Positions 542-32,997 of a DNA stretch of 64,000 nt are shown here, one piece after another. The stretch's first letter is position 1. Each line of letters starts with the position of its first letter. The stretch lies in assembly GCA_027448765.1 (NCBI GenBank), contig DAIDMV010000002.1, positions 366-64,365 of the forward strand, in the 5' to 3' direction. Position numbers and translations under genes: made by a program. The notes under the pieces were generated by a model. It made no database searches, was not told where the DNA came from, and saw only the letters and a list, made by a program, of their open reading frames with translations. The DNA is from a bacterium (GTDB taxonomy: Bacteria > Patescibacteriota > Saccharimonadia > Saccharimonadales > UBA4665).

Positions 542-1051
542 ATGAGTACTAAAAAAGATAATCTAATCATAAGAATTTCTTCATTGTTATTATTTGGTAT
601 AGCTTTTGGATATGTTGAAGCGGCAGTTGTTTTTTATTTAAGAAAAATTATTCATTTTCATAGTAATTACGATTTAACAAAGTACCACGTTATTTTAAAT
701 TTAAAATTTATCACCTTTGTTGATCCGATTCAAGCTTTATTAATTAATTCAAAAATCAATGAGGTTGAAGTGGTGAGAGAAGCTGCTACTATAGTCATGC
801 TTTTTTGTTTAGCCGTTTTAGTTGGTAAAAATAAATTACAGAAATTAGCGGTTTTTATGATTGGTTTTGCGACCTGGGATTTAGCTTATTATTTATTTTT
901 AAAAATTTTAGATAATTGGCCTAGGAGTTTATTCACTAAAGATGTTTTCTTTTTAATACCAGTTACTTGGATTGGACCGATTCTAACACCACTGATTATA
1001 TCAAGTTTAATTTTGATAGGTGGTATATTTTTGTATGTTAAACAGGATTAG
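542..1051 (+). CDS. Integral membrane protein, unknown function
   Basis: 169 aa with about five hydrophobic helices. No family recognised from sequence alone. The 3' end overlaps the convergent CHAP gene by 14 nt. Confidence 0.6.
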   Translation: MSTKKDNLIIRISSLLLFGIAFGYVEAAVVFYLRKIIHFHSNYDLTKYHVILNLKFITFVDPIQALLINSKINEVEVVREAATIVMLFCLAVLVGKNKLQKLAVFMIGFATWDLAYYLFLKILDNWPRSLFTKDVFFLIPVTWIGPILTPLIISSLILIGGIFLYVKQD

Positions 1052-1580
1052 GTAATGTTTTTTTATAAACTATATTTGGTGGATTATGAATAAAATTGAA
1101 ATATTTTGCTTGCTTGATTGTTAGAGTTTTTTGATCAACCACGTCTAAGCCATAAACATTCATTTCGCTAATCGTCCAATTGTCATTAATTGGATTGACT
1201 TTGATTACAAAAGCAACATGACCTAAAGGAGGTTGAGTTGTTTGCATAATAGAATCAACGCTTGGTGTATGGTTGATAATATAACCATCTTGAGCCGCTC
1301 GTTTAGCCCAAGTATTAGCGTTACCCCAGGTGTTTGGTATTGGTTGACCAATTTGTTGTCTTAATAAATAAACCCAGTAGGTACAGTTACCCCAAGCGTA
1401 ATGGTCCGACGGATCAATCGGACCAGTATAAAGTTGATGATTTAAGCTGATGTTATTATTGCCTATTAAAGCGGAAACAGAAATAATTGGTAGTAATAAT
1501 ATTAAGCTTAGTATTGAAATGGTAATAATTAATTCATATTTTAATTTAGCTGGTGTGAGTTGTCTTTTTAAAAAAATCAT
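1038..1580 (-). CDS. Membrane-anchored CHAP-domain peptidoglycan hydrolase (T4SS-associated)
   Basis: 180 aa with an N-terminal TM anchor. CHAP catalytic Cys context is WGNCTYWVY and His context is LGHVAFVI. It is the last gene of the T4SS-like operon, with a 4-nt overlap with the VirB4 ORF. Confidence 0.8.
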   Translation of the reverse strand: MIFLKRQLTPAKLKYELIITISILSLILLLPIISVSALIGNNNISLNHQLYTGPIDPSDHYAWGNCTYWVYLLRQQIGQPIPNTWGNANTWAKRAAQDGYIINHTPSVDSIMQTTQPPLGHVAFVIKVNPINDNWTISEMNVYGLDVVDQKTLTIKQAKYFNFIHNPPNIVYKKTLPNPV

Positions 1581-3289
1581 GATTGATAAATTTCATTAGG
1601 ATTGGTAGTAATAATTGGGTGTTCATGTTTACTGGCTGTGATTTTTACTGCTACATGGTAGGTATCAGCAATAATTAAAGCTTCTCCCTGGTCAGATGTT
1701 AAAAGAAAGTTTTCTTCAAATTCACTGAGATTAAATTCTTGAACAACATTTTTAATTGTCGTTGAGTCTTGTCTCATTAATATTCTTAAACTACTTTGAG
1801 AAGCAATAACTTTTCCATATTCGTTATTAAGAAAATCATTAGCTTGTTGAGAAATAATAGATACTCCTAGATAATATTTTCGTGACCGTCTAGTTAACCC
1901 GGCGATAAATTTAGCACTTTCTTCGTGTTGCATTAATAGCCACCCTTCGTCGATGATTAATAATCTTTTTTTGGGATTTAATTTAACTTGATAATTTACA
2001 AAATTAGAAATAATCATGATCACTAATTGTCTTAAATTATCAGCAATATCCTTAATATCAAAGATAATTAAATTATTAGCCAGATCAATATTAGTTTGAA
2101 AATTAAATATTTCTTTTAAACTACCAGATATAAATTTTTCCAGACGGTTAGCCAAATTCTGGCTACCTAATTCTTTAACTTCATCATATAGATTTTGTAG
2201 AATTGGGGTCTCTTCTTTAAATTTTTCATAAATGTTGATGATAGCTTTATCTAGAATTGATTTATCTTCTGAATTTAAACCATCAACCATCAACGATATA
2301 ATTGAGATAATATTTTGGATATGATCAGACAATGATTCTTTTGTTTGGTGACTTAGTTCAAGGTCAAATAAATTAATTTTTTGTTTTGAGTTTGTTGATA
2401 ATTGAATATATGTGCCGTCAAATTCTTCGGATAATTTTTTATATTCTTGTTCTGGATCAATGATAATAACTTGAACATCTTTAATTAATTGCCTCATTAT
2501 TTCTATTTTCATCGCATAGCTTTTACCAGATCCTGATTGAGCAAAAATAATTGAGTTAGCATTATTTAAATTAAAGCGATCAATAATCACCAAAGAGTTA
2601 TTGTTTTTATTAACACCATATAAAATACCGTTTTCTTGAACCAATTCACTGCTAATAAACGGAAAAGTTAGTGATAAAGCCGTACTGTCTAAGTTTCTTT
2701 TTTGATTGATTAGATCTTTGGCTTTGGGCAGAGTCGATTCATAGGCATCTAATTGTTGGTAGGTAGCATTTTTTGTATAAAAAAGATGACTGGCTAGAAT
2801 AGTTTCAATATTTTTTGTTTTTTCTTCCAAGTCGTTTAAATTGTTAGCTTTAATAGTAATATAGATACCAATTTGGAATAATTTTTCTTGACCTCGCATA
2901 ATTTTATCCCTTAACGATATAGCTGATTGGAGAGGATCAGCTATATCTGGACCAATTAGCTTACCGTTTTTGCGCATTAATCTTTTGGTTGACTCTAGTT
3001 CGGTGATTTTTCTTTGTAGTTTGGGCAAAGCGTCGATACTATTAATTAAATCAATATGATAGCTTAAGTCTATATCGTGGTTGTAATTAATTAGATTATT
3101 TAACCACCCGGTTGAGGCTACATAGGGATAACCTGAAATAAAAATTGTTTTTAAAAGTTGATTATTAATATTTAAGTGATGAGTGTTTTCTTCTAGTCCA
3201 GAGTAACTAATTAAGTCTAGATGATCTTGTTGACCTAATAAAAAATTATTATTTTTAGGATGATTATTTTTTAGTTTAATTTTAATCAT
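1577..3289 (-). CDS. virB4: VirB4/TraE-family type IV secretion ATPase (ATPase part)
   Basis: 570 aa. Walker A is AQSGSGKSY and Walker B is LLIIDEGW. The GYPYVASTGWLNNL...DLSYHI block is typical of Gram-positive-type VirB4. It has 4-nt overlaps with both neighbours. Confidence 0.85.
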   Translation of the reverse strand: MIKIKLKNNHPKNNNFLLGQQDHLDLISYSGLEENTHHLNINNQLLKTIFISGYPYVASTGWLNNLINYNHDIDLSYHIDLINSIDALPKLQRKITELESTKRLMRKNGKLIGPDIADPLQSAISLRDKIMRGQEKLFQIGIYITIKANNLNDLEEKTKNIETILASHLFYTKNATYQQLDAYESTLPKAKDLINQKRNLDSTALSLTFPFISSELVQENGILYGVNKNNNSLVIIDRFNLNNANSIIFAQSGSGKSYAMKIEIMRQLIKDVQVIIIDPEQEYKKLSEEFDGTYIQLSTNSKQKINLFDLELSHQTKESLSDHIQNIISIISLMVDGLNSEDKSILDKAIINIYEKFKEETPILQNLYDEVKELGSQNLANRLEKFISGSLKEIFNFQTNIDLANNLIIFDIKDIADNLRQLVIMIISNFVNYQVKLNPKKRLLIIDEGWLLMQHEESAKFIAGLTRRSRKYYLGVSIISQQANDFLNNEYGKVIASQSSLRILMRQDSTTIKNVVQEFNLSEFEENFLLTSDQGEALIIADTYHVAVKITASKHEHPIITTNPNEIYQS

Positions 3290-3900
3290 ATTATCCCCTT
3301 TTTCAAGTTCTTAATTAATTCTTGATTGATTGGTTGAATTTTATAAATATCGGGATTATAAATTTCATAAAATAAATTAAAGATATCTAAACTGGTTAAT
3401 CGTTTAGTCGATAGTTTTAATTTGGTTAAGTTTTTTTGAATGATATCGCAGTTAATGTTTAATTTATCCTTAGCTTCGATATAGTTATTATTGAAATCGT
3501 CAAGAGGTATAATTAGATAAAATAATCTAGTTAAAATTTTGTTTTTGTGACTTAGATTATTAACAAAGTCGATATAATTATTAATTTGATTTTTGTACTT
3601 AATATAATTAGCTTTATTTTTTAACGACGCTCTAAAATTTGATGTGTAAGTTTTAAGATCTAATTCCCTAACCTGAATATAAATTTGGATTCGTGAAGGT
3701 AGTGCGTTTAAAAAATTTTGATAAATTTCGGTTATTATATCTTTTTCTGATTCACTTTTTAATTCAAAATTAATAGTTGATATTTGAATAATTGCTCGGT
3801 AACGGTGGTCGGAAAGATGAAGTAAATCATCTTCAATACTAACAATGTCTAGCTGTTGTTTTGACGAAGCTTTAGTATTATTTTTTAAAAAATCTAACAT
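3286..3900 (-). CDS. VirB4 N-terminal-domain-like protein (separate ORF upstream of the ATPase)
   Basis: 204 aa. IVSIEDDLLHLSDHRYRAIIQISTINFELKSESEKDII..YQNFLNAL resembles, from memory of the family, the extreme N-terminus of full-length Gram-positive VirB4 proteins. ATGA overlap with the ATPase ORF. 204+570 aa is about the full-length VirB4 size. Confidence 0.5.
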   Translation of the reverse strand: MLDFLKNNTKASSKQQLDIVSIEDDLLHLSDHRYRAIIQISTINFELKSESEKDIITEIYQNFLNALPSRIQIYIQVRELDLKTYTSNFRASLKNKANYIKYKNQINNYIDFVNNLSHKNKILTRLFYLIIPLDDFNNNYIEAKDKLNINCDIIQKNLTKLKLSTKRLTSLDIFNLFYEIYNPDIYKIQPINQELIKNLKKGII

Positions 3901-4372
3901 AAATTTTTCCTTGTTTAGTGATTTTAAAACTAAAATTAGAACTTTTTTGATCAGTTAAATTATCAATAGAAATTGTCTGAAATTTATTTATCTTTGGTTG
4001 ATTGATTTTATGATGATTATTTTTTTTAGGTTTTTTGAAATCTTGGAGATTATAATTTGATGATAGTTGCTTGAATTGATTTTTATTAAAAACGTAGTAT
4101 CTTGGCCTTAAAAGATAAAGTATGATTACGATGAGCCAATTTAAGATAAGCTTATTGTTAAGTCTAATTGCTAGTGCACTGATTGAACTGATTAACAAAA
4201 CCATCAGTATTATTTTATAAACATCAATACTGTTAAATGGAGGAAAAATTAAATAAATGATAAATGATAGGATCAATGGAATTATTAATATAATTAATTG
4301 ATTAAGACTTAAATTATGAGTGATGTGATCCTCTATATTAATTACTTGGGAGGGAATATTAGTAGTTTTCAT
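3878..4372 (-). CDS. PrgI/VirB3-like small membrane protein (assigned by context)
   Basis: 164 aa with two adjacent TM helices near the N-terminus and then a basic, Asn-rich tail. It lies between the VirB6-like and VirB4 genes, as PrgI/VirB3-type components do. Confidence 0.45.
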   Translation of the reverse strand: MKTTNIPSQVINIEDHITHNLSLNQLIILIIPLILSFIIYLIFPPFNSIDVYKIILMVLLISSISALAIRLNNKLILNWLIVIILYLLRPRYYVFNKNQFKQLSSNYNLQDFKKPKKNNHHKINQPKINKFQTISIDNLTDQKSSNFSFKITKQGKIYVRFFKK

Positions 4373-4374
4373 AG

Positions 4375-5556
4375 TTATTTCACAATATTAATGACATAAT
4401 TAGATAATTTTCTGATCGCTTTTGGCGTAACTGAAACGAAATCAAGTTCCATTAACATTTTTTGAGTTTTTAGAAGTGTAATCAGTGTTGCTATTCCAAC
4501 AATTGAGGGCATTAACGGATTAAAATTTTTGGTGTTGTTATCAATTAAACTGCTTAAAATAATCGAAGCTAAAAGTAAAATAATGACATGAACAAATAAA
4601 ACAAAAATTGTTGAAAAGTAAGTTTTAACGCTGATTGTAACGAAATCTCTAAAACTGGGTAGTAAACTTAATAGAAAAATTAAAGGTGAGAGAATGGCGC
4701 CTAAATAGAGCACTACTAAACGCATAATATAATAAACTAATAAGATGACGCATAAGATAACAAAAATTAGTAAAATTAACATACTGACTAAACTTAATCC
4801 ATTACTAGACTTAGCTACTTGATTTAGAATATTCCAAACAGTTAATTTGGGAAAACTATTGTAAAGAGCTTGAACCATATAGTTTGATAGGTTGATTATT
4901 AAATCTATGATAAAAATTGAAGAGTTCATTAAGATAAAGGTAAAAATTATGACTGGGGCCATGTTTTTTAAAGAGATGTCCTCAAGTCCTAGACTTGAAC
5001 TGGTAATGATGTGTAAACCTAAAAGTGTAATCATTAAGATCATCAAGCTGTCGGCAATCCCAACTATGACTAACCAAATTTTTAAAACACTTTGGTTGCT
5101 AGCCATTAATGGTGTTGAGTGGGTAAAGTATATTAGTGCCTGAATAAATGGTTGAGCAATAGAAAAAACTATATTTTTTAATAGACCGATAATACTGTCG
5201 ATTATAATAGTAACAATTCCGTTTTTTGTTGGCTGAACCTTAAGACTCCTAATTGCTGGTACGCTGGCTGTTGTGACATGGCTAGAAAGATTGTAATTCT
5301 GCCACAAAAAATGAACTAAAAAAGCTGAGGCGATAACGATAATAAGCCCAATAATTGATTTTTTAATAATAATTTTAGCATGAAGAAGTTTTTCTGGATT
5401 ACCGGCACTGGTCATATATTCAAAACCAGCTTGAATTAGGAAGAAAGTTGTTAAGAGACCGGCCAAAACACTTAAACCTAAGATAATTGGTTGAATTTGA
5501 TTAATTAAATTCTGATTTAGATTAACTAAATTAAATATTTCAAAAAAATTATTCAT
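4375..5556 (-). CDS. VirB6/TrbL-like polytopic membrane protein with N-terminal pilin-like module
   Basis: 393 aa with many TM segments. Position and topology match VirB6/TrbL. N-terminal residues repeat the pilin-like motif of the upstream gene (GFEYMTSAGNPEKLLHAK versus GFIYITSTGNPTKLEKAK). Confidence 0.6.
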   Translation of the reverse strand: MNNFFEIFNLVNLNQNLINQIQPIILGLSVLAGLLTTFFLIQAGFEYMTSAGNPEKLLHAKIIIKKSIIGLIIVIASAFLVHFLWQNYNLSSHVTTASVPAIRSLKVQPTKNGIVTIIIDSIIGLLKNIVFSIAQPFIQALIYFTHSTPLMASNQSVLKIWLVIVGIADSLMILMITLLGLHIITSSSLGLEDISLKNMAPVIIFTFILMNSSIFIIDLIINLSNYMVQALYNSFPKLTVWNILNQVAKSSNGLSLVSMLILLIFVILCVILLVYYIMRLVVLYLGAILSPLIFLLSLLPSFRDFVTISVKTYFSTIFVLFVHVIILLLASIILSSLIDNNTKNFNPLMPSIVGIATLITLLKTQKMLMELDFVSVTPKAIRKLSNYVINIVK

Positions 5557-5558
5557 CT

Positions 5559-5903
5559 TTATCCCCCAAAGGCGCTGGTGGCTAACTGAGTAACAATATT
5601 AGATAAAACGAAAGCCGCTATCGTAATTGCTAAACCTAGACTAGAAAACAGTAATGTTTTTTTAGCTTTTTCTAGTTTTGTTGGATTACCGGTACTAGTG
5701 ATATAAATAAACCCCCCTATAACAAAAAAGCCGGTCGCTACAAGACCGGCTAAACCTGCTATTGCTTGGATAATTGTTTTTAAAAAATTATCCACTGACC
5801 CCAGGCCAACTGGCGAGGCCGCTAGAGCTTGATTGGGGATAATAATCTCGAGAAAAAGAACGCTAAAGAAGAGCTTTATTTTAAGTTTGTTTAAGTTTTT
5901 CAT
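5559..5903 (-). CDS. T4SS pilin-like protein (VirB2/TrbC-like architecture)
   Basis: 114 aa. A signal peptide ends at QALA-AS, and two hydrophobic helices flank the short loop TSTGNPTKLEKAKK. It is the first gene of the cluster. AAGGAG lies upstream of the ATG. Confidence 0.6.
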   Translation of the reverse strand: MKNLNKLKIKLFFSVLFLEIIIPNQALAASPVGLGSVDNFLKTIIQAIAGLAGLVATGFFVIGGFIYITSTGNPTKLEKAKKTLLFSSLGLAITIAAFVLSNIVTQLATSAFGG

Positions 5904-6076
5904 CTTAATACTCCTTTAATTGACAGGAGTATCACACAATATTTATATAAATGCAATAATATTTTAAAACATAAGAAATTTAAATTTAAATTTATATGAT
6001 TATGAAACGTTGACTATTTTACAAAAAGCTGGGTTTTTTCTATTTAATGATAAAATTATTATAATCTATTGTGATT

Positions 6077-6709
6077 ATGAATAAAATTAAAATTAAAGTC
6101 AGAAGTTTAATAGCTAAATTTGCCAAGTTAATTGATCATTTTTCGGCTGGACAGATTACACCAAATTTTGTGACATATTTTGGTTTAGTTGGTTTTTTAT
6201 TAGTTGGCTATTTAATTATTGTTAATCAAAATATTTTAGCTGCTATTTTTTTAATAATTTTTGGATTATTTGATACCCTTGATGGTGAATTAGCTCGATT
6301 ACAAAAAAGTGATTCGACAAAAGGTATGTTGTTGGATGCTAGTACTGATCGCTTGAAAGAAATAATCTTACTGGCTGCTTTAGCTTTTCAAATTGTGTCT
6401 AGATATCATCAACATCAACCGATTGACGCTTTAGTAGTTGTTCTAGCTTTAGGTACTTCAATTTTAATTAGTTATGTTAAAGCCAAAGGTGAAGCGATTT
6501 TAGCTAGTCAAGATAAAAACATCAGTCATCAAAAATTAAATCGTATTTTTGGCGGTGGTTTAATGAGTTATGAGTTTCGAACTGTTATTGTAATTGTAGC
6601 TTTATTTTTTAATTTAATTATTCCTGCTTTAGTAGTGATCATTGTTTTGGGAACCTATACTTACTTGTTTCGTTTTTTTAAAATTATGAAATATTTGTCT
6701 AGTGAATAA
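6077..6709 (+). CDS. CDP-alcohol phosphatidyltransferase family protein
   Basis: Exact signature D-x2-DG-x2-AR-x8-G-x3-D-x3-D (DTLDGELARLQKSDSTKGMLLDASTD). Polytopic. The ORF track starts at GTG 6071; ATG 6077 is likelier. Confidence 0.9.
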   Translation: MNKIKIKVRSLIAKFAKLIDHFSAGQITPNFVTYFGLVGFLLVGYLIIVNQNILAAIFLIIFGLFDTLDGELARLQKSDSTKGMLLDASTDRLKEIILLAALAFQIVSRYHQHQPIDALVVVLALGTSILISYVKAKGEAILASQDKNISHQKLNRIFGGGLMSYEFRTVIVIVALFFNLIIPALVVIIVLGTYTYLFRFFKIMKYLSSE

Positions 6710-7346
6710 CTTAAAAATAGATTTGCATACCCATTCTACGGCATCACCAGACGGTTCTTTGAATCGCAATGATTATGATTTTATGCTAAAAAATAATTTA
6801 TTAAATTATATCGCTGTGACTGATCACAACACAATCAAACAAGCTCAAATAATTCAAAATAAACTGGGTCAGCAAATTATCGTTGGCGAAGAAATTTTAA
6901 CTCAAGAAGGTGAAATTATTGGTTTATTTTTAACTAAACTTATTCCAGCTAACTTAAGCCTTCAAGAGACTATATCTTTAATTAAAAAGCAGTCGGGCCT
7001 AGTTTATTTACCCCACCCTCTTGAGTCTCAACGTCATGGCTTAAGTTTTCAAACAGTTCAAAAATTTATCTCTTCGATTGATATTATAGAATGTTATAAT
7101 GGTAGAAGTTTATTAAATAATCATCATCGGAAAATAATTGACATGATTGAAGAGTTTGGGTTGGTTGGAGCGGCTAGTAGTGACAGTCATGGAAGAATTG
7201 GTTTTGGTCGGACTTATTCAATTATTGAGGATGGCGAGATTGATCAGAACAATTTGGTGGCAACTTTAAAAACAGCGAACTATCATTATCGACCAGCCGG
7301 TTTGATAGCCAGATTATATCCAACTATTAATCGTTTAAGAAAATGA
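6702..7346 (+). CDS. PHP-domain metal-dependent phosphoesterase
   Basis: 214 aa with the N-terminal PHP motif DLHTHSTASPDG and later His/Asp ligand motifs (VTDHN, HPLE, SDSHG). The GTG start overlaps the upstream gene by 8 nt. Confidence 0.8.
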   Translation: MNNLKIDLHTHSTASPDGSLNRNDYDFMLKNNLLNYIAVTDHNTIKQAQIIQNKLGQQIIVGEEILTQEGEIIGLFLTKLIPANLSLQETISLIKKQSGLVYLPHPLESQRHGLSFQTVQKFISSIDIIECYNGRSLLNNHHRKIIDMIEEFGLVGAASSDSHGRIGFGRTYSIIEDGEIDQNNLVATLKTANYHYRPAGLIARLYPTINRLRK

Positions 7347-7903
7347 TTAAAGATTTACTATTTGTTTTATACTTTTTTGCCCCAGTTGGTTTGGCTAATA
7401 TGGTGCCACCAATTTTAAGTAAAGTTGCTTTCTTGAAAGATTTAAATTTTCCAATTGATTTTAATTATCAATTTCGAGGTAAACCTATCTTTGGCAGTCA
7501 TAAAACTTGGCGTGGATTAATTGGAGGTATCGTTGTAGCTATATTGGTCTTGTGGCTAGAAGTTTATATTTTCAATCATAGTCATTTTATTCAAAGCATT
7601 ACGCCAAAAGATATTAATTATCGTACCCTACCGATCTTGTTGCTTGGTTTTTTATTTGGTTTTGGAGCTTTGATGGGTGATGCTGTCGAAAGTTTTTTTA
7701 AACGTCAAATTGGTATTGAAGCCGGTAAGAGTTTATTCTTTTTTGATCAAACTGATTATATATTAGGAGCTATTTTAACTACTTTTTGGATAGTTAGTTT
7801 AGACTTCAAGCGTTATGTTCTGTTAGTTATTAGTTTTTTTATGCTACATGTAGTTTTTAGTTTAATCGGATATTTAATTAAAGTTAAAAATTCACCACTT
7901 TAA
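7343..7903 (+). CDS. CarS-family (CDP-archaeol synthase-like, DUF46) membrane cytidylyltransferase
   Basis: 186 aa with about 5 TM helices. YFFAPVGLANMVPPIL, PIDF..F.GKPIFGSHKTWRG and GDAVESFFKRQIGIEAGKSLFFFDQTDYILGA match the conserved CarS blocks as I recall them. ATGA overlap with the PHP gene. Confidence 0.75.
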   Translation: MIKDLLFVLYFFAPVGLANMVPPILSKVAFLKDLNFPIDFNYQFRGKPIFGSHKTWRGLIGGIVVAILVLWLEVYIFNHSHFIQSITPKDINYRTLPILLLGFLFGFGALMGDAVESFFKRQIGIEAGKSLFFFDQTDYILGAILTTFWIVSLDFKRYVLLVISFFMLHVVFSLIGYLIKVKNSPL

Positions 7904-8517
7904 TTTTTTGTAATAATTGCTAGATTTTCTATTTGTTTAATTTGAACTTTTTGATGTTTAAAAAATACATCTATAGCCCTACTAACACCAGGTAAAGCCT
8001 CTCTATTGTAATCATCGATTATAATAGTCCCTTTTTTATTAAAAACTGGCCAAATTAATTTTAATGAGTCTAAAATTGAAAAATAAAAATCACCATCTAA
8101 AAAAGCAAAATAAATTTTTTTTGGTAATTCTTGACCAGTTAATTGGTTAAACCAAGCTTTGGTAATGTGTGGTAAGGCTAAATTATTTTTTTTAAAATTA
8201 GTGATCAGGTTGTTTTTAGAACAGCTTAATTGAAATTTTTGAAATTGATCCCCGGCTACCGAAAGATCTTCAGATGTTTTATCTGGTAATCCTTGGAATG
8301 AATCGTAGACAAAAAAATTTGATGGTTGATTATAATTAATTAATAATTTCTGAATAAAAAGACTGGTGGTACCAACATAACAACCCATTTCTACGACACT
8401 ACCATCTAACTGTTGATTAATATTATTTTCTAAATTATCAAGTATAATTTTTATTTTACTTTTATTGATTTGATCAGAGACTAAATTGATTTGGTTAATG
8501 ATGGAACTAGTTAACAT
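7900..8517 (-). CDS. Class I SAM-dependent methyltransferase, TylF/MycF-like
   Basis: 205 aa with VVEMGCYVGTTS (motif I-like) and the acidic motifs AFLDGDFY and IIIDDY. Confidence 0.65.
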   Translation of the reverse strand: MLTSSIINQINLVSDQINKSKIKIILDNLENNINQQLDGSVVEMGCYVGTTSLFIQKLLINYNQPSNFFVYDSFQGLPDKTSEDLSVAGDQFQKFQLSCSKNNLITNFKKNNLALPHITKAWFNQLTGQELPKKIYFAFLDGDFYFSILDSLKLIWPVFNKKGTIIIDDYNREALPGVSRAIDVFFKHQKVQIKQIENLAIITKN

Positions 8518-15750: not shown

Positions 15751-16514
15751 GAATTGATAAAATCATAGATTGCACAAGTAATCGATTCAAAAATTTTATT
15801 ATAATTATTGGCCAGATAGTAACTACTTAGAATATTTAAATTAGTTTCCCAATTTTCGGTATTTATTGCTTCTGTCAGACTAATTTTACCGTCATAAAAA
15901 GCTATTAAATTTTGATTAAATTCTGTAATTAAAGCTAGTTTAAATTGTTGACAAAAATGATCGATGATTTGAATTATTTTTGTCAATTCCATGTTAGAAG
16001 TAATGGCTTGGTGGTAATGAAAATTTCTTAATAATTTTTGTAAATTTTTAAATTGGATAATGATGACTGTTTGATTTGGTTGAAAGTTATCAATAATAGC
16101 ATCATGACTAATAACTTTTATTTTATTGATCTCATTAATAATTTTTTCAATTAAGATAATAGTTTCGCTATTGGTTGTAAAACCACCAATCATTGACAGA
16201 ATATCACTATCGAGACTAAGATCTTCAATTAAGCTAAATGTTTCTAGACTAAACGCCCCACTTTGATTAGACGGTGCAAAAATGAGATTGGATTGGTGTT
16301 CTTGAAAAATCTTTCTTAAGCTATTTGGTAAAACTACATGTAGTTGATGATATTTTTTTTGTTGCAGTAAATTATAAGCCGTTGATATTTGTTTAAAATC
16401 AGTACTACTACCACCAATTAAACAAAAATTATTAGCACTAATTTGACTAACGGGTTGATCCCAAAATAAATCAGGAAATAATGGTTGATTAATGTTTTGT
16501 CTTTGCCAGTACAT
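15729..16514 (-). CDS. Hypothetical protein with weak YjeF-C/carbohydrate-kinase-like resemblance
   Basis: 261 aa. LIGGSSTDF, MIGGFTTNSET and VISHDAI loosely parallel the NAD(P)HX-dehydratase blocks. The last 22 nt are antisense to the tRNA-Leu 3' end. Confidence 0.45.
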   Translation of the reverse strand: MYWQRQNINQPLFPDLFWDQPVSQISANNFCLIGGSSTDFKQISTAYNLLQQKKYHQLHVVLPNSLRKIFQEHQSNLIFAPSNQSGAFSLETFSLIEDLSLDSDILSMIGGFTTNSETIILIEKIINEINKIKVISHDAIIDNFQPNQTVIIIQFKNLQKLLRNFHYHQAITSNMELTKIIQIIDHFCQQFKLALITEFNQNLIAFYDGKISLTEAINTENWETNLNILSSYYLANNYNKIFESITCAIYDFINSGAARRT

Positions 16515-17226
16515 ATTGATTATCTTGATAAGTTAATTGATAGTTAACGTTTTTTCTTTCGATTACAATTTTCCAATGTTTAGATTGAGCTAGATCAAAA
16601 AGTGATTGATTGGGATTAAAGGCAATTGGATTCTCGACATAATTCAAAATATATTGATCTCCTAAAGTATCACCAACGGCGTAACTATTTTTATTACTAA
16701 GGTTATATTTTGTAATTAATTGTTTTAAAGCTTTTAGCTTTTGTTGACCAGTCATAACGATGAGCTGAGATTTTTTATTATTGTCAGTTAGATTACTGCC
16801 AGCAAAGTCATCAATTCGATAATATCGAGCTATTAATTTGACAATATCTTTTGGCGAGCCGGAGATAAAAAAAATAGCATAATTTTTAGTCTGTAATTCT
16901 TTAATTAAATTTAAGGTATAGCTGTGAACTTGATCTTTATAAATACTAAAAACGTTTTGACAGATTTGATTAAAATCATCAGAGTTAATTTTATAAACAA
17001 TGCGAGCAGTTTCATTGATTAAATGTTTTTCATATTTTTCGAAACTTTCTTTTGTTTGTCGATTTTTCCAGTCTTGTTTATATTGATTGATAGTTTGAAT
17101 TTGTTGGTCGGTTAATAGCTTGAGATTAATTAATTCGTCAATAATAGCATGGTATAGCTGCCATCTAATTAACGTACCATCAAGATCAAAAACAGCGTAT
17201 TTAGTTTTTAGTTTTTCTGTATCCAT
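16489..17226 (-). CDS. HAD-superfamily hydrolase (subfamily IB-like)
   Basis: 245 aa with motif I AVFDLDGTL, motif II FISGS and a late GDTLGD. Confidence 0.8.
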   Translation of the reverse strand: MDTEKLKTKYAVFDLDGTLIRWQLYHAIIDELINLKLLTDQQIQTINQYKQDWKNRQTKESFEKYEKHLINETARIVYKINSDDFNQICQNVFSIYKDQVHSYTLNLIKELQTKNYAIFFISGSPKDIVKLIARYYRIDDFAGSNLTDNNKKSQLIVMTGQQKLKALKQLITKYNLSNKNSYAVGDTLGDQYILNYVENPIAFNPNQSLFDLAQSKHWKIVIERKNVNYQLTYQDNQYVLAKTKH

Positions 17227-18143
17227 GTAGAAATCCTTTCTGACAGTTCAATTTCTTGTCCATTGAAGCTGTGATCGGCTTGATTAATAATTTCATAATT
17301 TATGAATTTTTCAGTAGTTGCTCCAAGATTTTTTTTAATTAATTGAAAAATGTTTGCGGGTCCATTGAAAGGTATAGTAAATTCATCTAATTGTCCAAAG
17401 ATCATTAGAAGATTTCGATCAATACTGTTTAATTCTTGAAATATTTTTTTGTGCCCCAATCTTTTAAAACTGGCTTCATAATAAGGAAAAATATTATAGC
17501 TGCCATCAGGATTTAGCATATCAAAGCAAGACTGAGCTGACATTGGATAGCAGCCAGAATATTTCGGCATTTTTTTAAACGGTTTATCAAGATTAATAAT
17601 TTGTTTAGCTAGCTTAAGACTAGTAAAAAATTTGTCTTGCAAATTAAGATAATTACAGCCAACATCGTCACTGGCTCCAAGTAAAATATAGGCTGTTACG
17701 TGATCTTTTTTTTGGTTTTTATAATGATATAGAATTGCCTTATTGGCGCCAGTTGAATGACCAATTAAATAAATTTTTTGGTATCCCTGTTGTTGGACAA
17801 AATTAATCGCTCCGTCAATGTCTTTTAGACAGTCTATAATTAGTTCGTTAGTCCAACCTCCTTTAAAATGTATTGATTGATCATCTTTAAATTTTAAATA
17901 TTTTTGATTATGGGCTCCACGGTTATTAAAAGCTAAAAAACTAATTTGATTTGAGTTTAATTGATTAGCTAATTGGTTTATTAGCTTTGGTTTATAGAAG
18001 ACACCATTATCGCCCATACCATGTAACCAAATAGCAATTTTTTTAGTTTTAAGTTGTTGGTTTTCAAATAATAGCCCAGGTAAAATAAGTTGGTCGGTAG
18101 TGATTACTTCAACTAATTTTGTCATTTTAATTTTGTAATTCAA
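17208..18143 (-). CDS. Alpha/beta-fold hydrolase
   Basis: 311 aa with nucleophile elbow GHSTGA, an oxyanion-region HGMGDN and a late DH. Confidence 0.75.
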   Translation of the reverse strand: MNYKIKMTKLVEVITTDQLILPGLLFENQQLKTKKIAIWLHGMGDNGVFYKPKLINQLANQLNSNQISFLAFNNRGAHNQKYLKFKDDQSIHFKGGWTNELIIDCLKDIDGAINFVQQQGYQKIYLIGHSTGANKAILYHYKNQKKDHVTAYILLGASDDVGCNYLNLQDKFFTSLKLAKQIINLDKPFKKMPKYSGCYPMSAQSCFDMLNPDGSYNIFPYYEASFKRLGHKKIFQELNSIDRNLLMIFGQLDEFTIPFNGPANIFQLIKKNLGATTEKFINYEIINQADHSFNGQEIELSERISTWIQKN

Positions 18144-20515: not shown

Positions 20516-21685
20516 TTAGTCAGCACAACCACCTGTGCTGACTAGTTTTTGATTATTTTTATTGTGGTTAAAATAACTTATGACTTTATTGGCTGTTAAA
20601 GCATAACCAATATGATAATAGGTAGTTGATTGAGCGAAAACAATTCCCATCACTTGACCTGTTTGATTAATTAATGGACCACCAGAATTACCTGGAATAA
20701 CTTTAGCGTGTATTTCGTAGATTGAGCGAGTGGTAGTATTGTTGCCGTAAATATTTTGTCCAGTTGCCATTAGTTGATTAAGTATTGAGGCGCCAACAAC
20801 TGTCAGATTGCCGCCACCTGGATAACCTAAAACAGCACCAGGAGTTCCATCGGCAAAAATATTGGATGATAAAGTTAGAGCTTTTAGCCGAAGATTACTA
20901 ACTCTTAAAAGTGCTAAATCAAAATTTGGGTTGAAATAAACAGTTCTAGCTTCAAGTGTTTGTCCAGATAAAGTAGTAATATATGGATGAAGAATACCGG
21001 CTACGACATGAGCATTGGTCATAATTAAATTTTTTTGAACTACGAAACCCGAACCTTCTACAATACCACCACATCCCTGTCCAACAATTTTCACTACTGA
21101 AGGCTCATCAGCTGAAATAGCCGGTTTAAAATTTTTTAAATTCGGAATTGGTATGTTTTTAGTTAGGGTTGGTTCACCCTGTAAGAACACTTGAGGAATT
21201 CCGTTAGGATCAATAATATGGCCCAGATCAGCTATGATTGCTGGTGCTGGTGGTAGATGACGGTTTAAATATGAAATAATTTTTGAATTATTAAGATCAA
21301 TTTGAAGTTGTGGAATAGAAAAGGAATTTAACAAGGCTACACCTAACCAAATTGCTAAAAGAACGGTAATAATACTCATTAAAGAACCCAAAATTCCGTC
21401 TAGAAAATTAATTTTAATAATTAATAATTTTCGTTTAATTTTAATAGCATAATGTTCTAAAATTGTGACACCAATAAAAGCTAGACCTAAAGTTGTCAAA
21501 AGAGCAATAAATGATCTTTCGAAGGAAGTATGAGCAAATTCGATCGTAAATCTTTCTAGATAAGCACCTAATAATAAACCACCAACAAAACCAACGGTTG
21601 AAAAAAATTGTCGTACAAAACCAATATTATAGCCTCTAATTAAGCTAATGATTAAAACAATAATGATGATAATATCTATTAACAT
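20516..21685 (-). CDS. CvpA-family membrane domain fused to a trypsin-like (S1C) serine protease
   Basis: 389 aa with 4 N-terminal TM helices. The protease domain has TNAHVV (His), DLALLRV (Asp) and GNSGGPL (Ser), an architecture like MarP-type proteases. Confidence 0.85.
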   Translation of the reverse strand: MLIDIIIIIVLIISLIRGYNIGFVRQFFSTVGFVGGLLLGAYLERFTIEFAHTSFERSFIALLTTLGLAFIGVTILEHYAIKIKRKLLIIKINFLDGILGSLMSIITVLLAIWLGVALLNSFSIPQLQIDLNNSKIISYLNRHLPPAPAIIADLGHIIDPNGIPQVFLQGEPTLTKNIPIPNLKNFKPAISADEPSVVKIVGQGCGGIVEGSGFVVQKNLIMTNAHVVAGILHPYITTLSGQTLEARTVYFNPNFDLALLRVSNLRLKALTLSSNIFADGTPGAVLGYPGGGNLTVVGASILNQLMATGQNIYGNNTTTRSIYEIHAKVIPGNSGGPLINQTGQVMGIVFAQSTTYYHIGYALTANKVISYFNHNKNNQKLVSTGGCAD

Positions 21686-23055
21686 AGGATTTCTTGCTTA
21701 GCTTGTCCTTTGGGGTATTGCTTTAAATTTTCTGGATGATTTTGCCAATAATCTATGATTGGTTGTAAAATCCGCCAGCTATCAATAATTTCATTAGAAG
21801 TCGCAAACAGATTATTGTCTCCTCTGAACGAATCTAGTAAAACTTTTTCGTATGGGTCTGGTTGATAATGATGAGAAAATGAGTTTTTGTAACTAAAATC
21901 CATAGTAGTAGTTTGGATTTTCTGATCTAAGCCGGGTTTTTTAACAGATAGACAAATATCTATGCCTTCATTAGGCTGTAGCCTAAAAGTAAGTTGATTA
22001 GTATGTTGTTCGTTAACGGCTGAAAAGTTGATAATTATTTCTGATTTTTTTTCGTTTAAAGCTTTACCAGTAGTTAATCTGATTGGTACGCCTTTCCAGA
22101 TGCTATTTTGAATTTCAAGTTGAATCGAAGCAAAGGTTTCGGTGGTTGAATTAGGATTATTGACCTCTTGTTTATAACCCTCGTATTGTGCTCGAAAGGT
22201 ATTAGTGGCTAATGTTTTTTCGTTATTCATTGGTTGAATATTAGCTAGTAGGCTATGTCGAGCTAAATGAATACTGTCATTATTTTTAAGATCAGTTGGT
22301 AATGTCATGGTCGTAACGGTTAACAATTGAAAAAGATGACTTTGAATTTGATCTCTTAAGGCGCCAGTGTGTTCATAAAAATCGACTCGATCTTCAATGT
22401 CGATAGACTCTAAGGTATTGATTTCAATGCTAGCGATATGTTGGTTATTCCAAGCTGTTTGAAATAAGGGATTATAACGTCGAAAAATTAAAATATTTTG
22501 AACGGTTTCTTTAGCTAGATAATGATCAATTCGAAAAATTTGCTGATCGGCAAAATATTGATTAGTTAATCTGATCAGTTGTTGAGCACTAGTTAGATCG
22601 TAGCCAAATGGTTTTTCGACTAGTAGTCTAGTTTGAACAGAATCATTAAATTGGTTTAATTGATTTGAACCCAGTTTAGTAATAATAGTTCCAAAAATTT
22701 CTGGTGGAATTGATAAATAGAATAATAAATGAAGTTTCAATGATTGATCTTGAACGATAATTTGGAGTTTTTGGTAAAGATTTTTATAAGCTTGATCATC
22801 ACTAGAATCAAACTGTTGGACTTCGAAAATTTTTTTGAAATCATTGTATTGTGATTGGTTGTCTTGAGGAACATCACTGTTAAGAAAAATTTGATCAATT
22901 TGAATTTCTCTTCTCGATAAACCAATAATTTTAAAATTTTTTGGTAATAGATTGTTACTATACAGGGCATAAAGAGCTGGTAAGACTTTTTTTTGAGCTA
23001 AATTGCCACTGATGCCAAAGATAATTAAAATGGTCATTGAGTTGGAATCATTCAT
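21679..23055 (-). CDS. zwf: Glucose-6-phosphate dehydrogenase
   Basis: 458 aa with the IFGISGNLA dinucleotide fold, VEKPFG and RIDHYLAKE. Confidence 0.95.
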   Translation of the reverse strand: MNDSNSMTILIIFGISGNLAQKKVLPALYALYSNNLLPKNFKIIGLSRREIQIDQIFLNSDVPQDNQSQYNDFKKIFEVQQFDSSDDQAYKNLYQKLQIIVQDQSLKLHLLFYLSIPPEIFGTIITKLGSNQLNQFNDSVQTRLLVEKPFGYDLTSAQQLIRLTNQYFADQQIFRIDHYLAKETVQNILIFRRYNPLFQTAWNNQHIASIEINTLESIDIEDRVDFYEHTGALRDQIQSHLFQLLTVTTMTLPTDLKNNDSIHLARHSLLANIQPMNNEKTLATNTFRAQYEGYKQEVNNPNSTTETFASIQLEIQNSIWKGVPIRLTTGKALNEKKSEIIINFSAVNEQHTNQLTFRLQPNEGIDICLSVKKPGLDQKIQTTTMDFSYKNSFSHHYQPDPYEKVLLDSFRGDNNLFATSNEIIDSWRILQPIIDYWQNHPENLKQYPKGQAKQEILC

Positions 23056-23056
23056 T

Positions 23057-23965
23057 TTATTTATTTAAATCATGTCCACCAAATTTGTTTCTCATAGCCG
23101 CTAAAAGTTTGGTAGCAAAATTAATTTGTCCGTGTTGAGATTCGACTCTAATGTCGAAAGATTTTTGAATCACTGGCATTGGTAGATTGATTTCATCGGC
23201 TGTTTCAAGTGCCCATTTCGCTTCACCGCTTTCGTGAACAAAACCATCAATACCATCAAGTTCAGGGTTGTCGTTAAAAATTTCTAAACAGAGTGAATTG
23301 AGCCAAGATGTAATCACGCTGTGATGTTGCCAAACTTCAGCCGCATCTTTTAGATTTATTTCTTTAAATGGGCCATTTTTAAGTAAATTATAGCCTTCAG
23401 CTAAACTTTCCATCATGCCGTATTCGATAGCATTATGGGTCATTTTAACAAAGTGGCCGGTGCCATTTTGACCAAAATATTTATAGTCACCTTCCGGTTT
23501 AGCCAGACTTTTAACGATTGGTTCGATTAATTCAAAATTTGCTCGTTGATTGGCTCCGATCATCATTGAAAAACCATTTTTGTAACCGTGAATACCACCA
23601 CTAGTTCCAATATCAATCAGATTATGGCCTAGTGATTCAACCATTTGAGCTCTTTTGATTGTTTGACGGTAATCTGAATTACCACCATCGATAATTAGAC
23701 TATTTTTTGGTAAAAATTGATCCCATTGATTGATTTGTTCATCAACAATTTCAGCTGGAAGCATAATCCATAAAATGATTGGTTCTTGATGACCAAATAA
23801 CTCAATAGCTTGTTTTTTATGTTGAGTAATACTAGCCCCAAGTTCTTGAGCCTTTTGAAGTGGTTCTAAACTTCGATTGATAGCAATAACTTGATGATTA
23901 TCTTCGCATAATTTTTGGACTATTTGGTAACCCATTTTGCCTAAGCCTTGGACAATAATTTTCAT
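23057..23965 (-). CDS. gnd: 6-phosphogluconate dehydrogenase, short (about 300 aa) form
   Basis: 302 aa with the GLGKMG Rossmann motif, GTSGG and HFVKMTHNAIEYG. Confidence 0.9.
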   Translation of the reverse strand: MKIIVQGLGKMGYQIVQKLCEDNHQVIAINRSLEPLQKAQELGASITQHKKQAIELFGHQEPIILWIMLPAEIVDEQINQWDQFLPKNSLIIDGGNSDYRQTIKRAQMVESLGHNLIDIGTSGGIHGYKNGFSMMIGANQRANFELIEPIVKSLAKPEGDYKYFGQNGTGHFVKMTHNAIEYGMMESLAEGYNLLKNGPFKEINLKDAAEVWQHHSVITSWLNSLCLEIFNDNPELDGIDGFVHESGEAKWALETADEINLPMPVIQKSFDIRVESQHGQINFATKLLAAMRNKFGGHDLNK

Positions 23966-24642
23966 GAAATATTAACTCCTATCCATTTATTATATACAAA
24001 AACCTGATTTAATTCATTTAAATAATTAGCTGGAAAATTATTTATATCATTAGAATTAGATTGATGTAGTTGTTTAATAATAGTTTCTTTAGAATCATCT
24101 AAAGCCACTAGATTGATTTGATCAAAACTTTTAAATGAAGTTAGATTGAAAGTAATTCTAGTAAAAGGTTGAGAGTTATAAGCACTAATAGTTTTTGGGG
24201 TTTGAATGGCTGGTGATTTAGGTAGTATGCCGGCAATATGTCCGTCTAGTCCTAAGCCAATTTGAACAATAGTTGTTGATTGTTGATTGATTGAGATAAT
24301 TTTTTTATTAAAATTTTTAACAGTTTCTTCAAGGGACAGATTGTTAGGATCTAAAATACTAATTAATCTAGCTTTTTTGGCTTGGAAATTGGCTTGAAGT
24401 AATTGAAAAAAATTTGAATCAGGATGATTGAAACGACCATATCTTTCGTCAACTAAACTAATGGTTAATTTAGCACTTAAATCGCTTGGTATTTGTTCCA
24501 TGATAGCTACTTCTAAATCGATGTTAGATCCACCCGACAATAACCATAAAGTTGAATCGTTTTGTTTTAATGCTGTTATTAAGCTTTGAGAAATATTATC
24601 AATAACCTGACGACTATTGTTGATTAAGTAATATTGAATCAT
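23962..24642 (-). CDS. pgl: 6-phosphogluconolactonase
   Basis: LSGGS and GLGLDGHIAGILP motifs. The track ORF extends to 24690, but ATG at 24642 (MIQYY...) abuts the upstream stop at 24644 and removes a 47-nt overlap. Confidence 0.8.
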   Translation of the reverse strand: MIQYYLINNSRQVIDNISQSLITALKQNDSTLWLLSGGSNIDLEVAIMEQIPSDLSAKLTISLVDERYGRFNHPDSNFFQLLQANFQAKKARLISILDPNNLSLEETVKNFNKKIISINQQSTTIVQIGLGLDGHIAGILPKSPAIQTPKTISAYNSQPFTRITFNLTSFKSFDQINLVALDDSKETIIKQLHQSNSNDINNFPANYLNELNQVFVYNKWIGVNIS

Positions 24643-24643
24643 A

Positions 24644-25378
24644 TTAATTTCTAAGTTCGATTTTAATAAACCCTTCAGCAAAATCGACACCTATATTTTG
24701 ACCAATTGTAGCGGCATTAGCTTTGAGCCAGACTGAAACTTGATCAATATTATCGATTTGGCTACGATGTTGTTCCAAAGCTTTAATTTTAAGATCAATG
24801 GTTGTCGTGATGTCGACGATAAAATTTTGTTGATTAAAATTGGTTAACAGAATTGTTTTAGTTTTATGTGGCATAAATCCAGCTGCAAAAAGTTCGGGAT
24901 ATGCTAAATGATCTCGAGCGAAAGGATAAATACAATCCAGAGCTGCTTGACCAGCTACTCGATGGTCAGGATGATTAATTGAGCCTCTTTGACTAGAGTA
25001 TAAGACACTGGGGTCCATTGTAATAATTGTATCTGGTTTGACCGTTCTAATAATTTTAATGATATCTTTTTTGAGATCATCATTATTGACCAGATGTCCA
25101 TCGGGGTAATTTAAAAAATAAACTTCTTTACCACCTAGTATGTTGAGTGCGTTTTTTTGTTCTTGTTTTCTAGTTTGAGACAAATCTTGTCGTTTTAGTT
25201 TGGTGTCAGTGGTTCCCTGGCCACCATCAGATAAGATTAAATAGTGAATTTCGGCACCTTGCGAAGCATAATAAGCCATAGTGCCGGCTGCTGAAAAATC
25301 TAAATCATCTGGATGGGCTGCAATGCCTAAAATGATTTGTGGTTTAATTGTGTCTTTGGTTGTATAGTTTTTTGTCAT
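24644..25378 (-). CDS. PIG-L/LmbE-family deacetylase
   Basis: 244 aa with AAHPDDLDF and HPDH zinc-ligand motifs. Confidence 0.85.
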   Translation of the reverse strand: MTKNYTTKDTIKPQIILGIAAHPDDLDFSAAGTMAYYASQGAEIHYLILSDGGQGTTDTKLKRQDLSQTRKQEQKNALNILGGKEVYFLNYPDGHLVNNDDLKKDIIKIIRTVKPDTIITMDPSVLYSSQRGSINHPDHRVAGQAALDCIYPFARDHLAYPELFAAGFMPHKTKTILLTNFNQQNFIVDITTTIDLKIKALEQHRSQIDNIDQVSVWLKANAATIGQNIGVDFAEGFIKIELRN

Positions 25379-32910: not shown

Positions 32911-32997
32911 ATGATTATTTAATTATTATAGCTTAATAACTGGAATTAAACTTAAAAAATATTACAGTTCGTTAGTTTGAAGTTGTACAATGAATTG

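Follow-up and report, generated by a model that had tools for sequence, protein, structure and literature searches.

What lipid head group could three overlapping genes assemble in a small, probably epibiotic bacterium? We examined this question at a locus in a 64,000-nucleotide stretch of DNA (the window hereafter; positions 366 to 64,365 of contig DAIDMV010000002.1, assembly GCA_027448765.1, G+C content 31.6%) from a member of the Saccharimonadales (Patescibacteriota, lineage UBA4665). The three open reading frames (ORFs) encode a CDP-alcohol phosphotransferase (CAPT), a PHP-fold phosphoesterase, and a CarS-type cytidylyltransferase. Homology and gene context suggest, with moderate confidence on our part, that they form a three-step pathway for an inositol head group; this qualification applies to the substrates, to the direction of flow and, above all, to the role of the PHP protein. 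The locus and its immediate surroundings are arranged as follows.

5904-6070, plus strand: intergenic region 5′ of the operon, between a minus-strand ORF ending at 5903 and ORF1
6071-6709, plus strand: ORF1, 212 amino acids (aa), GTG start; class I CDP-alcohol phosphotransferase resembling archaetidylinositol phosphate (AIP) and phosphatidylinositol phosphate (PIP) synthases
6702-7346, plus strand: ORF2, 214 aa, GTG start; soluble PHP-fold metal-dependent phosphoesterase, candidate PIP phosphatase
7343-7903, plus strand: ORF3, 186 aa, ATG start; predicted CarS-type integral-membrane CTP:lipid-phosphate cytidylyltransferase
7900-8517, minus strand: TylF-type O-methyltransferase, convergent with ORF3

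In the proposed pathway, ORF3, a five-helix membrane enzyme, would first form a CDP-lipid from CTP and a lipid phosphate; the latter would most probably be either phosphatidate or a scavenged glycerolipid phosphate related to it. ORF1 would then combine this CDP-lipid with myo-inositol-1-phosphate to give PIP and CMP, and ORF2 would remove the terminal phosphate of PIP to leave phosphatidylinositol (PI), which may subsequently be glycosylated.

The trio constitutes a single operon with translational coupling. ORF1 and ORF2 share 8 nt (6702-6709, GTGAATAA) that contain the GTG start of ORF2, and ORF2 and ORF3 share 4 nt (7343-7346, ATGA), the ATG of ORF3 lying on the TGA of ORF2. Both overlaps had been pointed out in an earlier note on this DNA and are read directly from the sequence. 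An alternative start of ORF1, the ATG at 6077, corresponds to a 100% identical 210-aa product on record and leaves the overlaps unaffected. Because the order of the ORFs and the tight coupling, with stop and start codons that overlap or nearly abut, recur in diverged relatives, the arrangement is more than a product of chance. On its 5′ side the operon shares the intergenic region with a divergent gene cluster resembling a type IV secretion system (T4SS), and on its 3′ side the TylF-type methyltransferase gene converges on ORF3, with 4 bases common to both (7900-7903); the trio is therefore a self-contained three-gene unit. Its promoter presumably lies within 5904-6070. A scan for promoters and terminators around the operon found sites no more frequent than in shuffled AT-rich sequence and did not define the operon boundaries, and an Rfam scan of the window returned two tRNAs only, with no leader RNA or other family upstream of ORF1.

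Residues 68-93 of ORF1, D-T-L-D-G-E-L-A-R-(8 residues)-G-M-L-L-D-A-S-T-D, match exactly the DxxDGxxAR(x8)GxxxDxxxD motif of the CDP-alcohol phosphotransferases, as the earlier note had seen, and PF01066 recognizes the protein with 57.8 bits (cut-off 22). The signature residues D68, D71, G72, A75, R76, G85, D89, and D93 are all present and, with the exception of A75 (conserved in at least 90%), are invariant in 77 homologues. A hydropathy scan gave five or six hydrophobic segments, i.e., a multi-pass membrane protein. Among the NCBIfam models, archaetidylinositol phosphate synthase (AIPS) ranked first with 94.3 bits, followed by PIP synthase (PIPSynth, 76.1), the Bacteroides BT1523-type PIP synthase (50), and di-inositol-phosphate-phosphate synthase (43). 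All four of these families use inositol-1-phosphate, whereas the PgsA and PssA models scored only 14-24 bits (pgsA 14-23). The same holds for the family as a whole: 77/77 members match the four inositol-1-phosphate-using CAPT families, compared with 0/77 for pgsA (E 1e-5) and 2/77 for pssA.

The residues of the acceptor site point in the same direction. Published structures and mutagenesis of the Mycobacterium tuberculosis PIP synthase (MtPIPS) define an inositol-phosphate pocket made of R94, S132, K135, R137, R155, and R195; the literature calls R155 and R195, the two arginines that bind the phosphate, absolutely conserved among PIP synthases and needed for inositol-phosphate binding. When ORF1 is aligned to the structure 6H53, its R94, S134, K137, and K139 correspond to MtPIPS R94, S132, K135, and R137, and its R201 to R195. 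R170, the counterpart of R155, aligns with the second arginine of an RxxR motif in AF2299 (‘RDFR’) and in a MIPS-linked CAPT from Thermoleophilia (‘RPER’); the first arginine of this motif (MtPIPS R152) is not kept in ORF1, which has Y167 there (‘SYEFR’). The invariant residues of the 77 homologues are D68, D71, G72, R76, G85, D89, D93, R94, S134, K137, K139, R170, and R201. We also considered ORF1 as a PgsA that would form phosphatidylglycerophosphate (PGP), and rejected this assignment on the low pgsA scores and the retained inositol-phosphate pocket.

ORF3 is CarS-like and not CdsA-like, in sequence and in its modeled structure. PF01864 (CarS-like) covers residues 3-184 with 88.2 bits, whereas PF01148 (the CdsA family) covers residues 53-125 only, with 39.4 bits; no family other than CarS scored better, so the assignment to CarS in the earlier note stands. 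Similarly, the NCBIfam model for CDP-archaeol synthase (PRK04032) gave 112.3 bits, as against 23.4 bits for CdsA (PRK11624, cut-off 385). The ORF3 family profile matches the archaeal ApCarS structure 5GUF (E = 8.5e-17), and an AlphaFold2 (AF2) model of ORF3 (pLDDT 91.7) superimposed on 5GUF with TM-scores of 0.66/0.76, compared with 0.38/0.29 on the Thermotoga maritima enzyme TmCdsA (4Q2G). The five hydrophobic segments found in its 186 aa fit the five-helix CarS fold and not the nine-helix CdsA fold. An invariant motif, G-D-x3-S-F-x-K-R ... D-Q-x-D, is made up of G112, D113, S117, F118, K120, R121, D135, Q136, and D138. It is very probable that ORF3 supplies the CDP-lipid donor of ORF1.

The middle protein, ORF2, is a PHP-fold phosphoesterase, again as first proposed. 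Its single-sequence score to the Pfam PHP model (PF02811) is 22.6 bits, just under the cut-off of 26.4, and the profile of its 72-member family matches solved PHP proteins in the PDB (best 36 bits). The AF2 model (pLDDT 95.8) was matched by Foldseek with a probability of 1.0 to the PHP structures 3E38, 7UG9 (RNase AM), 2ANU (TM0559), and 7RTY (PsfC). The metal-ligand motifs HxH, DH, E, H, and DxH are intact and invariant in 80 homologues (H9, H11, D17, D41, H42, E64, H105, D161, and H163), and 18 active-site positions hold one residue in all 80, or in all but a few. No match to the PgpA family was found in Pfam or NCBIfam, and the fold differs as well. The fold alone did not yield a substrate, as its closest structural matches, RNase AM and PHP proteins that are themselves uncharacterised, include no lipid enzyme. 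ORF2 belongs to a distinct subfamily, whose homologues in other phyla (30-40% identity) score 125-190 bits to its profile. Judged by gene context, ORF2 is somewhat more probably a PIP phosphatase than anything else.

That context was examined first in Patescibacteria. Database searches gave 813, 2536, and 1133 matches for the three proteins, respectively, and the named members of all three families are from Saccharimonadales, Saccharimonadia, or Patescibacteria, with relatives labeled ‘CDP-alcohol phosphatidyltransferase family protein’, ‘PHP domain-containing protein’, and ‘CDP-archaeol synthase’. The trio is present in many Patescibacteria at about 45-50% identity, with variants. A PHP-anchored scan of species-representative genomes yielded 12 Patescibacteria loci: seven hold the full co-directional trio, one is truncated after ORF1-ORF2, one has PHP-CarS only, and three have a CarS-like gene close downstream of PHP and a divergent CAPT that scores 128-154 bits to the archaeal AIP synthase. 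In the untruncated loci of this set, a CarS-like gene accompanies PHP in every case and an AIPS-like CAPT in all but L012. The tight spacing of stop and start codons, from overlap to near contact, is found in most of the set.

A second scan, anchored on CarS, covered metagenome contigs with at least 700 nt (57 loci) or at least 1400 nt (50 loci) of upstream flank. PHP adjoins CarS in 32 of the 57 loci, and a CAPT lies within 4 kb of CarS in 38 of the 50, 26 of them of the ORF1 type and 12 AIPS-like; the latter are mostly convergent and just downstream of CarS. The architectures include CAPT-PHP-CarS, CAPT-CarS, CarS facing a CAPT, a CAPT divergent from PHP-CarS, and CarS alone. The idea of PHP-CarS as an invariant core, true of the PHP-anchored loci, was abandoned since 25 of the 57 CarS-anchored loci have no PHP; from the varied architectures, the stable core is a CarS-like enzyme with an inositol-phosphate-type CAPT, and PHP is a frequent third member. 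Patescibacteria also have a second CAPT subfamily, which resembles the archaeal AIP synthase more closely (128-154 bits) than ORF1 does and is encoded divergently from PHP-CarS or convergently just 3′ of CarS (L010, L018, L019, L105, L154, and the weak hits among L123-L158). In the relatives with annotated neighbors (L001-L006), no gene after the cluster encodes a methyltransferase that Pfam recognises.

The CarS-anchored loci also bear on the supply of the acceptor. In six of them, a gene for myo-inositol-1-phosphate synthase (here MIPS) lies directly beside the cluster (PF01658, 76-122 bits for the five scanned), which suggests that inositol phosphate is produced by some, at least, of these bacteria themselves.

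L095 (2720-5660) and L127 (2635-6043): full trio, then convergent MIPS
L105 (1614-4543): MIPS, then CAPT, then PHP-CarS
L150 (3301-5730): CAPT-CarS-MIPS
L152 and L120: CarS adjoining MIPS

In the window itself, an oxidative pentose-phosphate operon (G6PD, 6PGD, and 6-phosphogluconolactonase; 21679-24690, minus strand) and PGI (27539-29122, plus strand) are encoded, so the organism metabolises glucose-6-phosphate, the substrate of MIPS. The earlier note had left the acceptor alcohol open. The NCBIfam ranks, the pocket residues, and the MIPS neighbors now make it highly probable that ORF1 uses an inositol phosphate, most likely myo-inositol-1-phosphate.

Outside Patescibacteria, the PHP subfamily is again linked to inositol-lipid genes. 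A conserved cluster in the order PAP2_3, ORF1-like CAPT, MIPS, GT4 glycosyltransferase, and PHP is common to 40 loci in metagenome-assembled genomes of Actinomycetota (L029-L089), mostly of Thermoleophilia, Solirubrobacterales, and Gaiellaceae; two examples are given here.

L029: 1807-6702
L089: 2752-6651

The CAPTs of these clusters score 138-168 bits to AIPS and 133-147 bits to PIPSynth, and the MIPS proteins match TIGR03450 with 532 bits; ORF1 shares 35% identity with a CAPT from Thermoleophilia whose gene lies beside MIPS. MIPS-GT4-PHP was found in 37/37 loci with enough upstream sequence, with a PIPS-like CAPT in reach in 30 of these. In 37/40 loci with a GT4 hit, GT4 and PHP lie in one uninterrupted frame, and we read them as GT4::PHP fusion proteins because chance would place them in the same frame in about one third of cases. 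No description of such a fusion was found in the literature searched. With the evidence for inositol and this linkage in a second phylum, the sequence of activation, transfer to a phosphorylated alcohol, and dephosphorylation put forward in the earlier note is supported and becomes specific.

Some other homologues of ORF2 have different neighbors related to the envelope. At the Sporomusa locus (L038), the order is LPG_synthase_TM, PHP, then GT87 (PimE family). In a metagenome-assembled genome of Chloroflexota (L025, 1888-6708), MurJ, a UbiA prenyltransferase, and LPG_synthase_TM precede PHP, an order reminiscent of pathways that move a phosphorylated group to a lipid carrier and then dephosphorylate it. 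A deltaproteobacterial locus has a GT4 and an O-antigen-ligase-like protein near PHP, and the context of the other PHP loci with annotated neighbors (L021, L028, and L069) was uninformative.

The role proposed for ORF2 fits a gap in known pathways. Papers from 2015-2022 call the phosphatase that converts PIP into PI (and the one acting on AIP) unidentified in actinobacteria and archaea. The first bacterial PIP phosphatase, described by Heaver et al. (2022), is the PgpA-family protein BT_1525 of Bacteroides thetaiotaomicron, encoded in the experimentally characterised cluster BT_1522-BT_1526 with MIPS (BT_1526), PIP synthase (BT_1523), and a PAP2-like inositol-phosphoceramide synthase (BT_1522). 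The Actinomycetota loci resemble this cluster in their PAP2_3, PIPS-like CAPT, and MIPS genes; unlike in Bacteroides, the position of the PgpA-type phosphatase is held by an unrelated PHP-fold protein. By this analogy, the presence of PHP in the place of BT_1525 looks like a non-orthologous displacement. Literature searches found no characterised PHP enzyme that acts on a lipid head group and no PHP-type PIP phosphatase. ORF2 shares the PHP barrel and the His/Asp/Glu ligands with characterised PHP enzymes (RNase AM/TrpH, 3′,5′-nucleoside bisphosphate phosphatase, histidinol-phosphate phosphatase, and YcdX), from which it differs in being shorter (214 aa) and in forming its own subfamily.

The operon as a whole was also compared with characterised systems. 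As in the mycobacterial and actinobacterial pathway (CdsA, PgsA1/PIP synthase, and PIP phosphatase), a CDP-lipid and inositol-1-phosphate would give PIP and then PI, and the CAPT motif and the MtPIPS residues are kept; the differences are the CarS-type activation, the distance of ORF1 from its counterpart (E ~1e-9 to 6H53), and the presence in the operon of a candidate phosphatase, PHP. With the archaeal archaetidylinositol pathway it shares the best matches of ORF3 (PF01864/PRK04032) and ORF1 (NF040950) and the ApCarS fold of ORF3 (5GUF), whereas the source is bacterial, the available sequence has no ether-lipid genes, and the scores lie under the equivalog cut-offs.

Several observations weigh against the pathway as proposed. 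ORF1 scores under the NCBIfam equivalog cut-offs (94.3 vs 180 bits for AIPS and 76.1 vs 170 bits for PIPSynth) and is therefore related to the characterised AIP and PIP synthases but not certified as their orthologue; ORF3 is likewise under that of PRK04032 (112.3 vs 148 bits). Archaeal CarS prefers geranylgeranyl substrates, discriminates against phosphatidate, and fails to complement an E. coli cdsA mutant, so the use of ester lipids by ORF3 would need a changed specificity. No MIPS gene was found in the 64-kb window, and a search for cdsA, plsX/Y/C, and fab genes found none in this window, which is only part of the genome. PHP is absent from about 44% (25/57) of the CarS-anchored loci, and neither CAPT nor MIPS lies within 6 kb of 28 of the 80 PHP homologues, those of Chloroflexota, Acidimicrobiia, archaea, and others. 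Finally, the annotation of Southlakia epibionticum ML1 (supplement of PMC10633639), a cultured and genetically tractable Saccharibacterium, lists one CAPT, SEML1_0297, which is non-essential and unlinked, between topA and dprA. Its annotation tables contain no CarS, CdsA, or MIPS, and their only PHP protein is RNase-AM-like. The operon was therefore lost or never gained in some host-associated lineages: the synteny that the earlier note had named as a check extends to many Patescibacteria and is not universal, as Southlakia and the PHP-less CarS loci show.

The alternative that best withstands the evidence keeps the pathway and gives ORF2 a substrate other than lipid-bound PIP. The substrate of ORF2 could be an inositol-phosphate conjugate, either soluble or glycosylated (compare the MshA2 step of mycothiol synthesis), or the pyrophosphate released by ORF3; ORF2 could also be a phospholipase D- or C-like (PLD/PLC-like) diesterase that frees phosphatidate from scavenged host lipids by removing their head groups. 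Indeed, PHP enzymes span monoesterases, diesterases, and nucleases, the nearest structures (RNase AM, TM0559, BVU_3505, and PsfC) are non-lipid proteins, and a hydropathy scan of ORF2 gave no hydrophobic segment. The PAP2_3 protein of the Actinomycetota cluster is another lipid-phosphatase candidate, and CarS/CAPT clusters exist without PHP. In addition, the GT4 fused to PHP matches neither the PimA nor the MshA NCBIfam model, which does not separate a PI from an inositol-phosphate conjugate as substrate, and PHP could therefore act on a non-lipid conjugate. However, in the Actinomycetota clusters PHP lies with MIPS and a CAPT of the PIP-synthase-like kind, and a cytidylyltransferase is absent, which speaks against a pyrophosphatase or PLD-like enzyme; in Patescibacteria, PHP was found with CarS as its neighbor in each case and with an inositol-phosphate-type CAPT in all cases but one; and the Bacteroides parallel leaves PIP phosphatase as the single unfilled role. 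We therefore regard a role of ORF2 other than on PIP as unlikely.

It is also conceivable, if improbable, that ORF3 acts on isoprenoid lipids, either as a CDP-archaeol synthase or as a CTP-dependent polyprenol kinase, with an archaetidylinositol-like or polyprenyl-linked product. The sequence and fold of ORF3 are those of CarS, whose characterised members prefer geranylgeranyl substrates; ORF1 and the divergent CAPTs of the variant loci score best to the archaeal AIP synthase model; one Chloroflexota PHP homologue follows a UbiA prenyltransferase; and the CTP-transferase superfamily includes dolichol and phytol kinases. However, no GGGPS, DGGGPS, or UbiA gene was found in the 64-kb window, and no ether-lipid genes, including these, were seen beside the trio in annotated relatives. 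A polyprenol kinase would, moreover, not serve the coupled CAPT, which requires a CDP-lipid and not a kinase product. Patescibacteria are reported to lack lipid synthesis, including that of fatty acids, and probably reuse lipids of neighboring bacteria, which are also the presumed origin of the lysolipids enriched in them in situ. The tails used by ORF3 are then probably acyl chains and scavenged.

The remaining alternative, that the operon makes phosphatidylglycerol or another non-inositol lipid through a PgsA- or Pss-like ORF1 using glycerol-3-phosphate or serine, with ORF2 as a PGP phosphatase, draws on the JGI label of ORF1 relatives (phosphatidylglycerophosphate synthase), on the sub-cut-off AIPS and PIPS scores, on the missing MIPS in the window, and on basic pocket residues that could in principle bind any phosphorylated alcohol, but it is the least probable of all given the pgsA scores of 14-23 against 94 bits for AIPS, the lack of a pgsA match in any of the 77 family members at E 1e-5, the conservation of all six MtPIPS inositol-phosphate pocket residues, and the MIPS genes adjoining six related loci.

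Other genes in the window may be related to envelope lipids. Combined with a PI-type synthase, the five listed below hint at the making of a glycolipid with a PI anchor, resembling phosphatidylinositol mannosides (PIMs) or glycosylphosphatidylinositol (GPI).

24644-25378, minus strand: PIG-L-family deacetylase (closest to BshB1, then MshB and Mca)
30438-31400, plus strand: GT2 polyprenyl-phosphate-sugar-type transferase
32977-33897, plus strand: second GT2 transferase of this type
34737-35849, minus strand: LPG_synthase_TM (flippase-like)
38946-39854, minus strand: PIG-V-like GT-C mannosyltransferase

LPG_synthase_TM and a GT-C enzyme (GT87) likewise flank the PHP homologue of Sporomusa. An MMPL/RND transporter (47984-50137, minus strand) has as its best NCBIfam match the trehalose-monomycolate exporter MmpL3, at 243 bits and far under the cut-off; a role as lipid transporter in a presumed lipid scavenger is possible. 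Overlapping genes for a HAD hydrolase and an alpha/beta hydrolase (Hydrolase_4) lie at 16489-18143 (minus strand), and the latter could be an esterase that processes scavenged lipids. The T4SS-like cluster upstream of the operon (1038-5903, minus strand) encodes a 570-aa VirB4-like ATPase (by sequence reading), TraC-like and PrgI-like proteins, TrbL/T4SS_pilin, and a small pilin; a T4SS of the monoderm-conjugation type has been reported for Patescibacteria, and the cluster in the window is of the same type. A 557-aa protein (51946-53619, plus strand) carries a C-terminal phage-tail-lysozyme domain (PF18013, 99 bits) and may serve as a cell-wall hydrolase directed against the host.

Part of this picture was already available. 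Database pipelines name the three families, and Starr et al. (2018), using KEGG-type annotation of a rhizosphere Saccharibacterium, predicted that scavenged phosphatidate could be converted to CDP-diacylglycerol and on to PI and PIMs, so that head-group remodelling and PI in Saccharibacteria are not a new idea. In the literature searched, CarS-type enzymes of Saccharibacteria are nowhere discussed, and Coleman et al. (2019) make no mention of CarS; searches for CarS in CPR bacteria and for MIPS in Saccharibacteria were noisy or returned nothing specific. New here are the assignment of the head group, the linkage to MIPS, and the PHP subfamily as a candidate PIP phosphatase, with its occurrence in two phyla and in a fusion.

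From a biological perspective, a widely conserved head-group operon would mean that many Patescibacteria do more than import finished host lipids, at a time when lipid acquisition and processing in this group are stated to be unresolved. The PHP-fold candidate makes the question of the missing enzyme between PIP and PI directly testable, and a CarS-type enzyme in bacteria that presumably have ester lipids bears on how strict the archaeal versus bacterial substrate split between CarS and CdsA is. We put forward tentatively, as a conjunction less probable than either the pathway or the PIP phosphatase role taken alone, that the PHP subfamily is the missing PIP (possibly AIP) phosphatase both in Patescibacteria and in the GT4::PHP proteins of Actinomycetota, and that the CarS-type enzyme activates ester-linked phosphatidate. 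If both were true, head-group attachment of an ‘archaeal’ kind would cross the lipid divide and act on bacterial lipids that probably derive from hosts. Finally, should the operon yield PI or a glycosylated PI, its product would resemble lipids in the envelopes of the actinobacteria that host cultured Saccharibacteria, and one could speculate that such a PI-like product matters for attachment or immune recognition.

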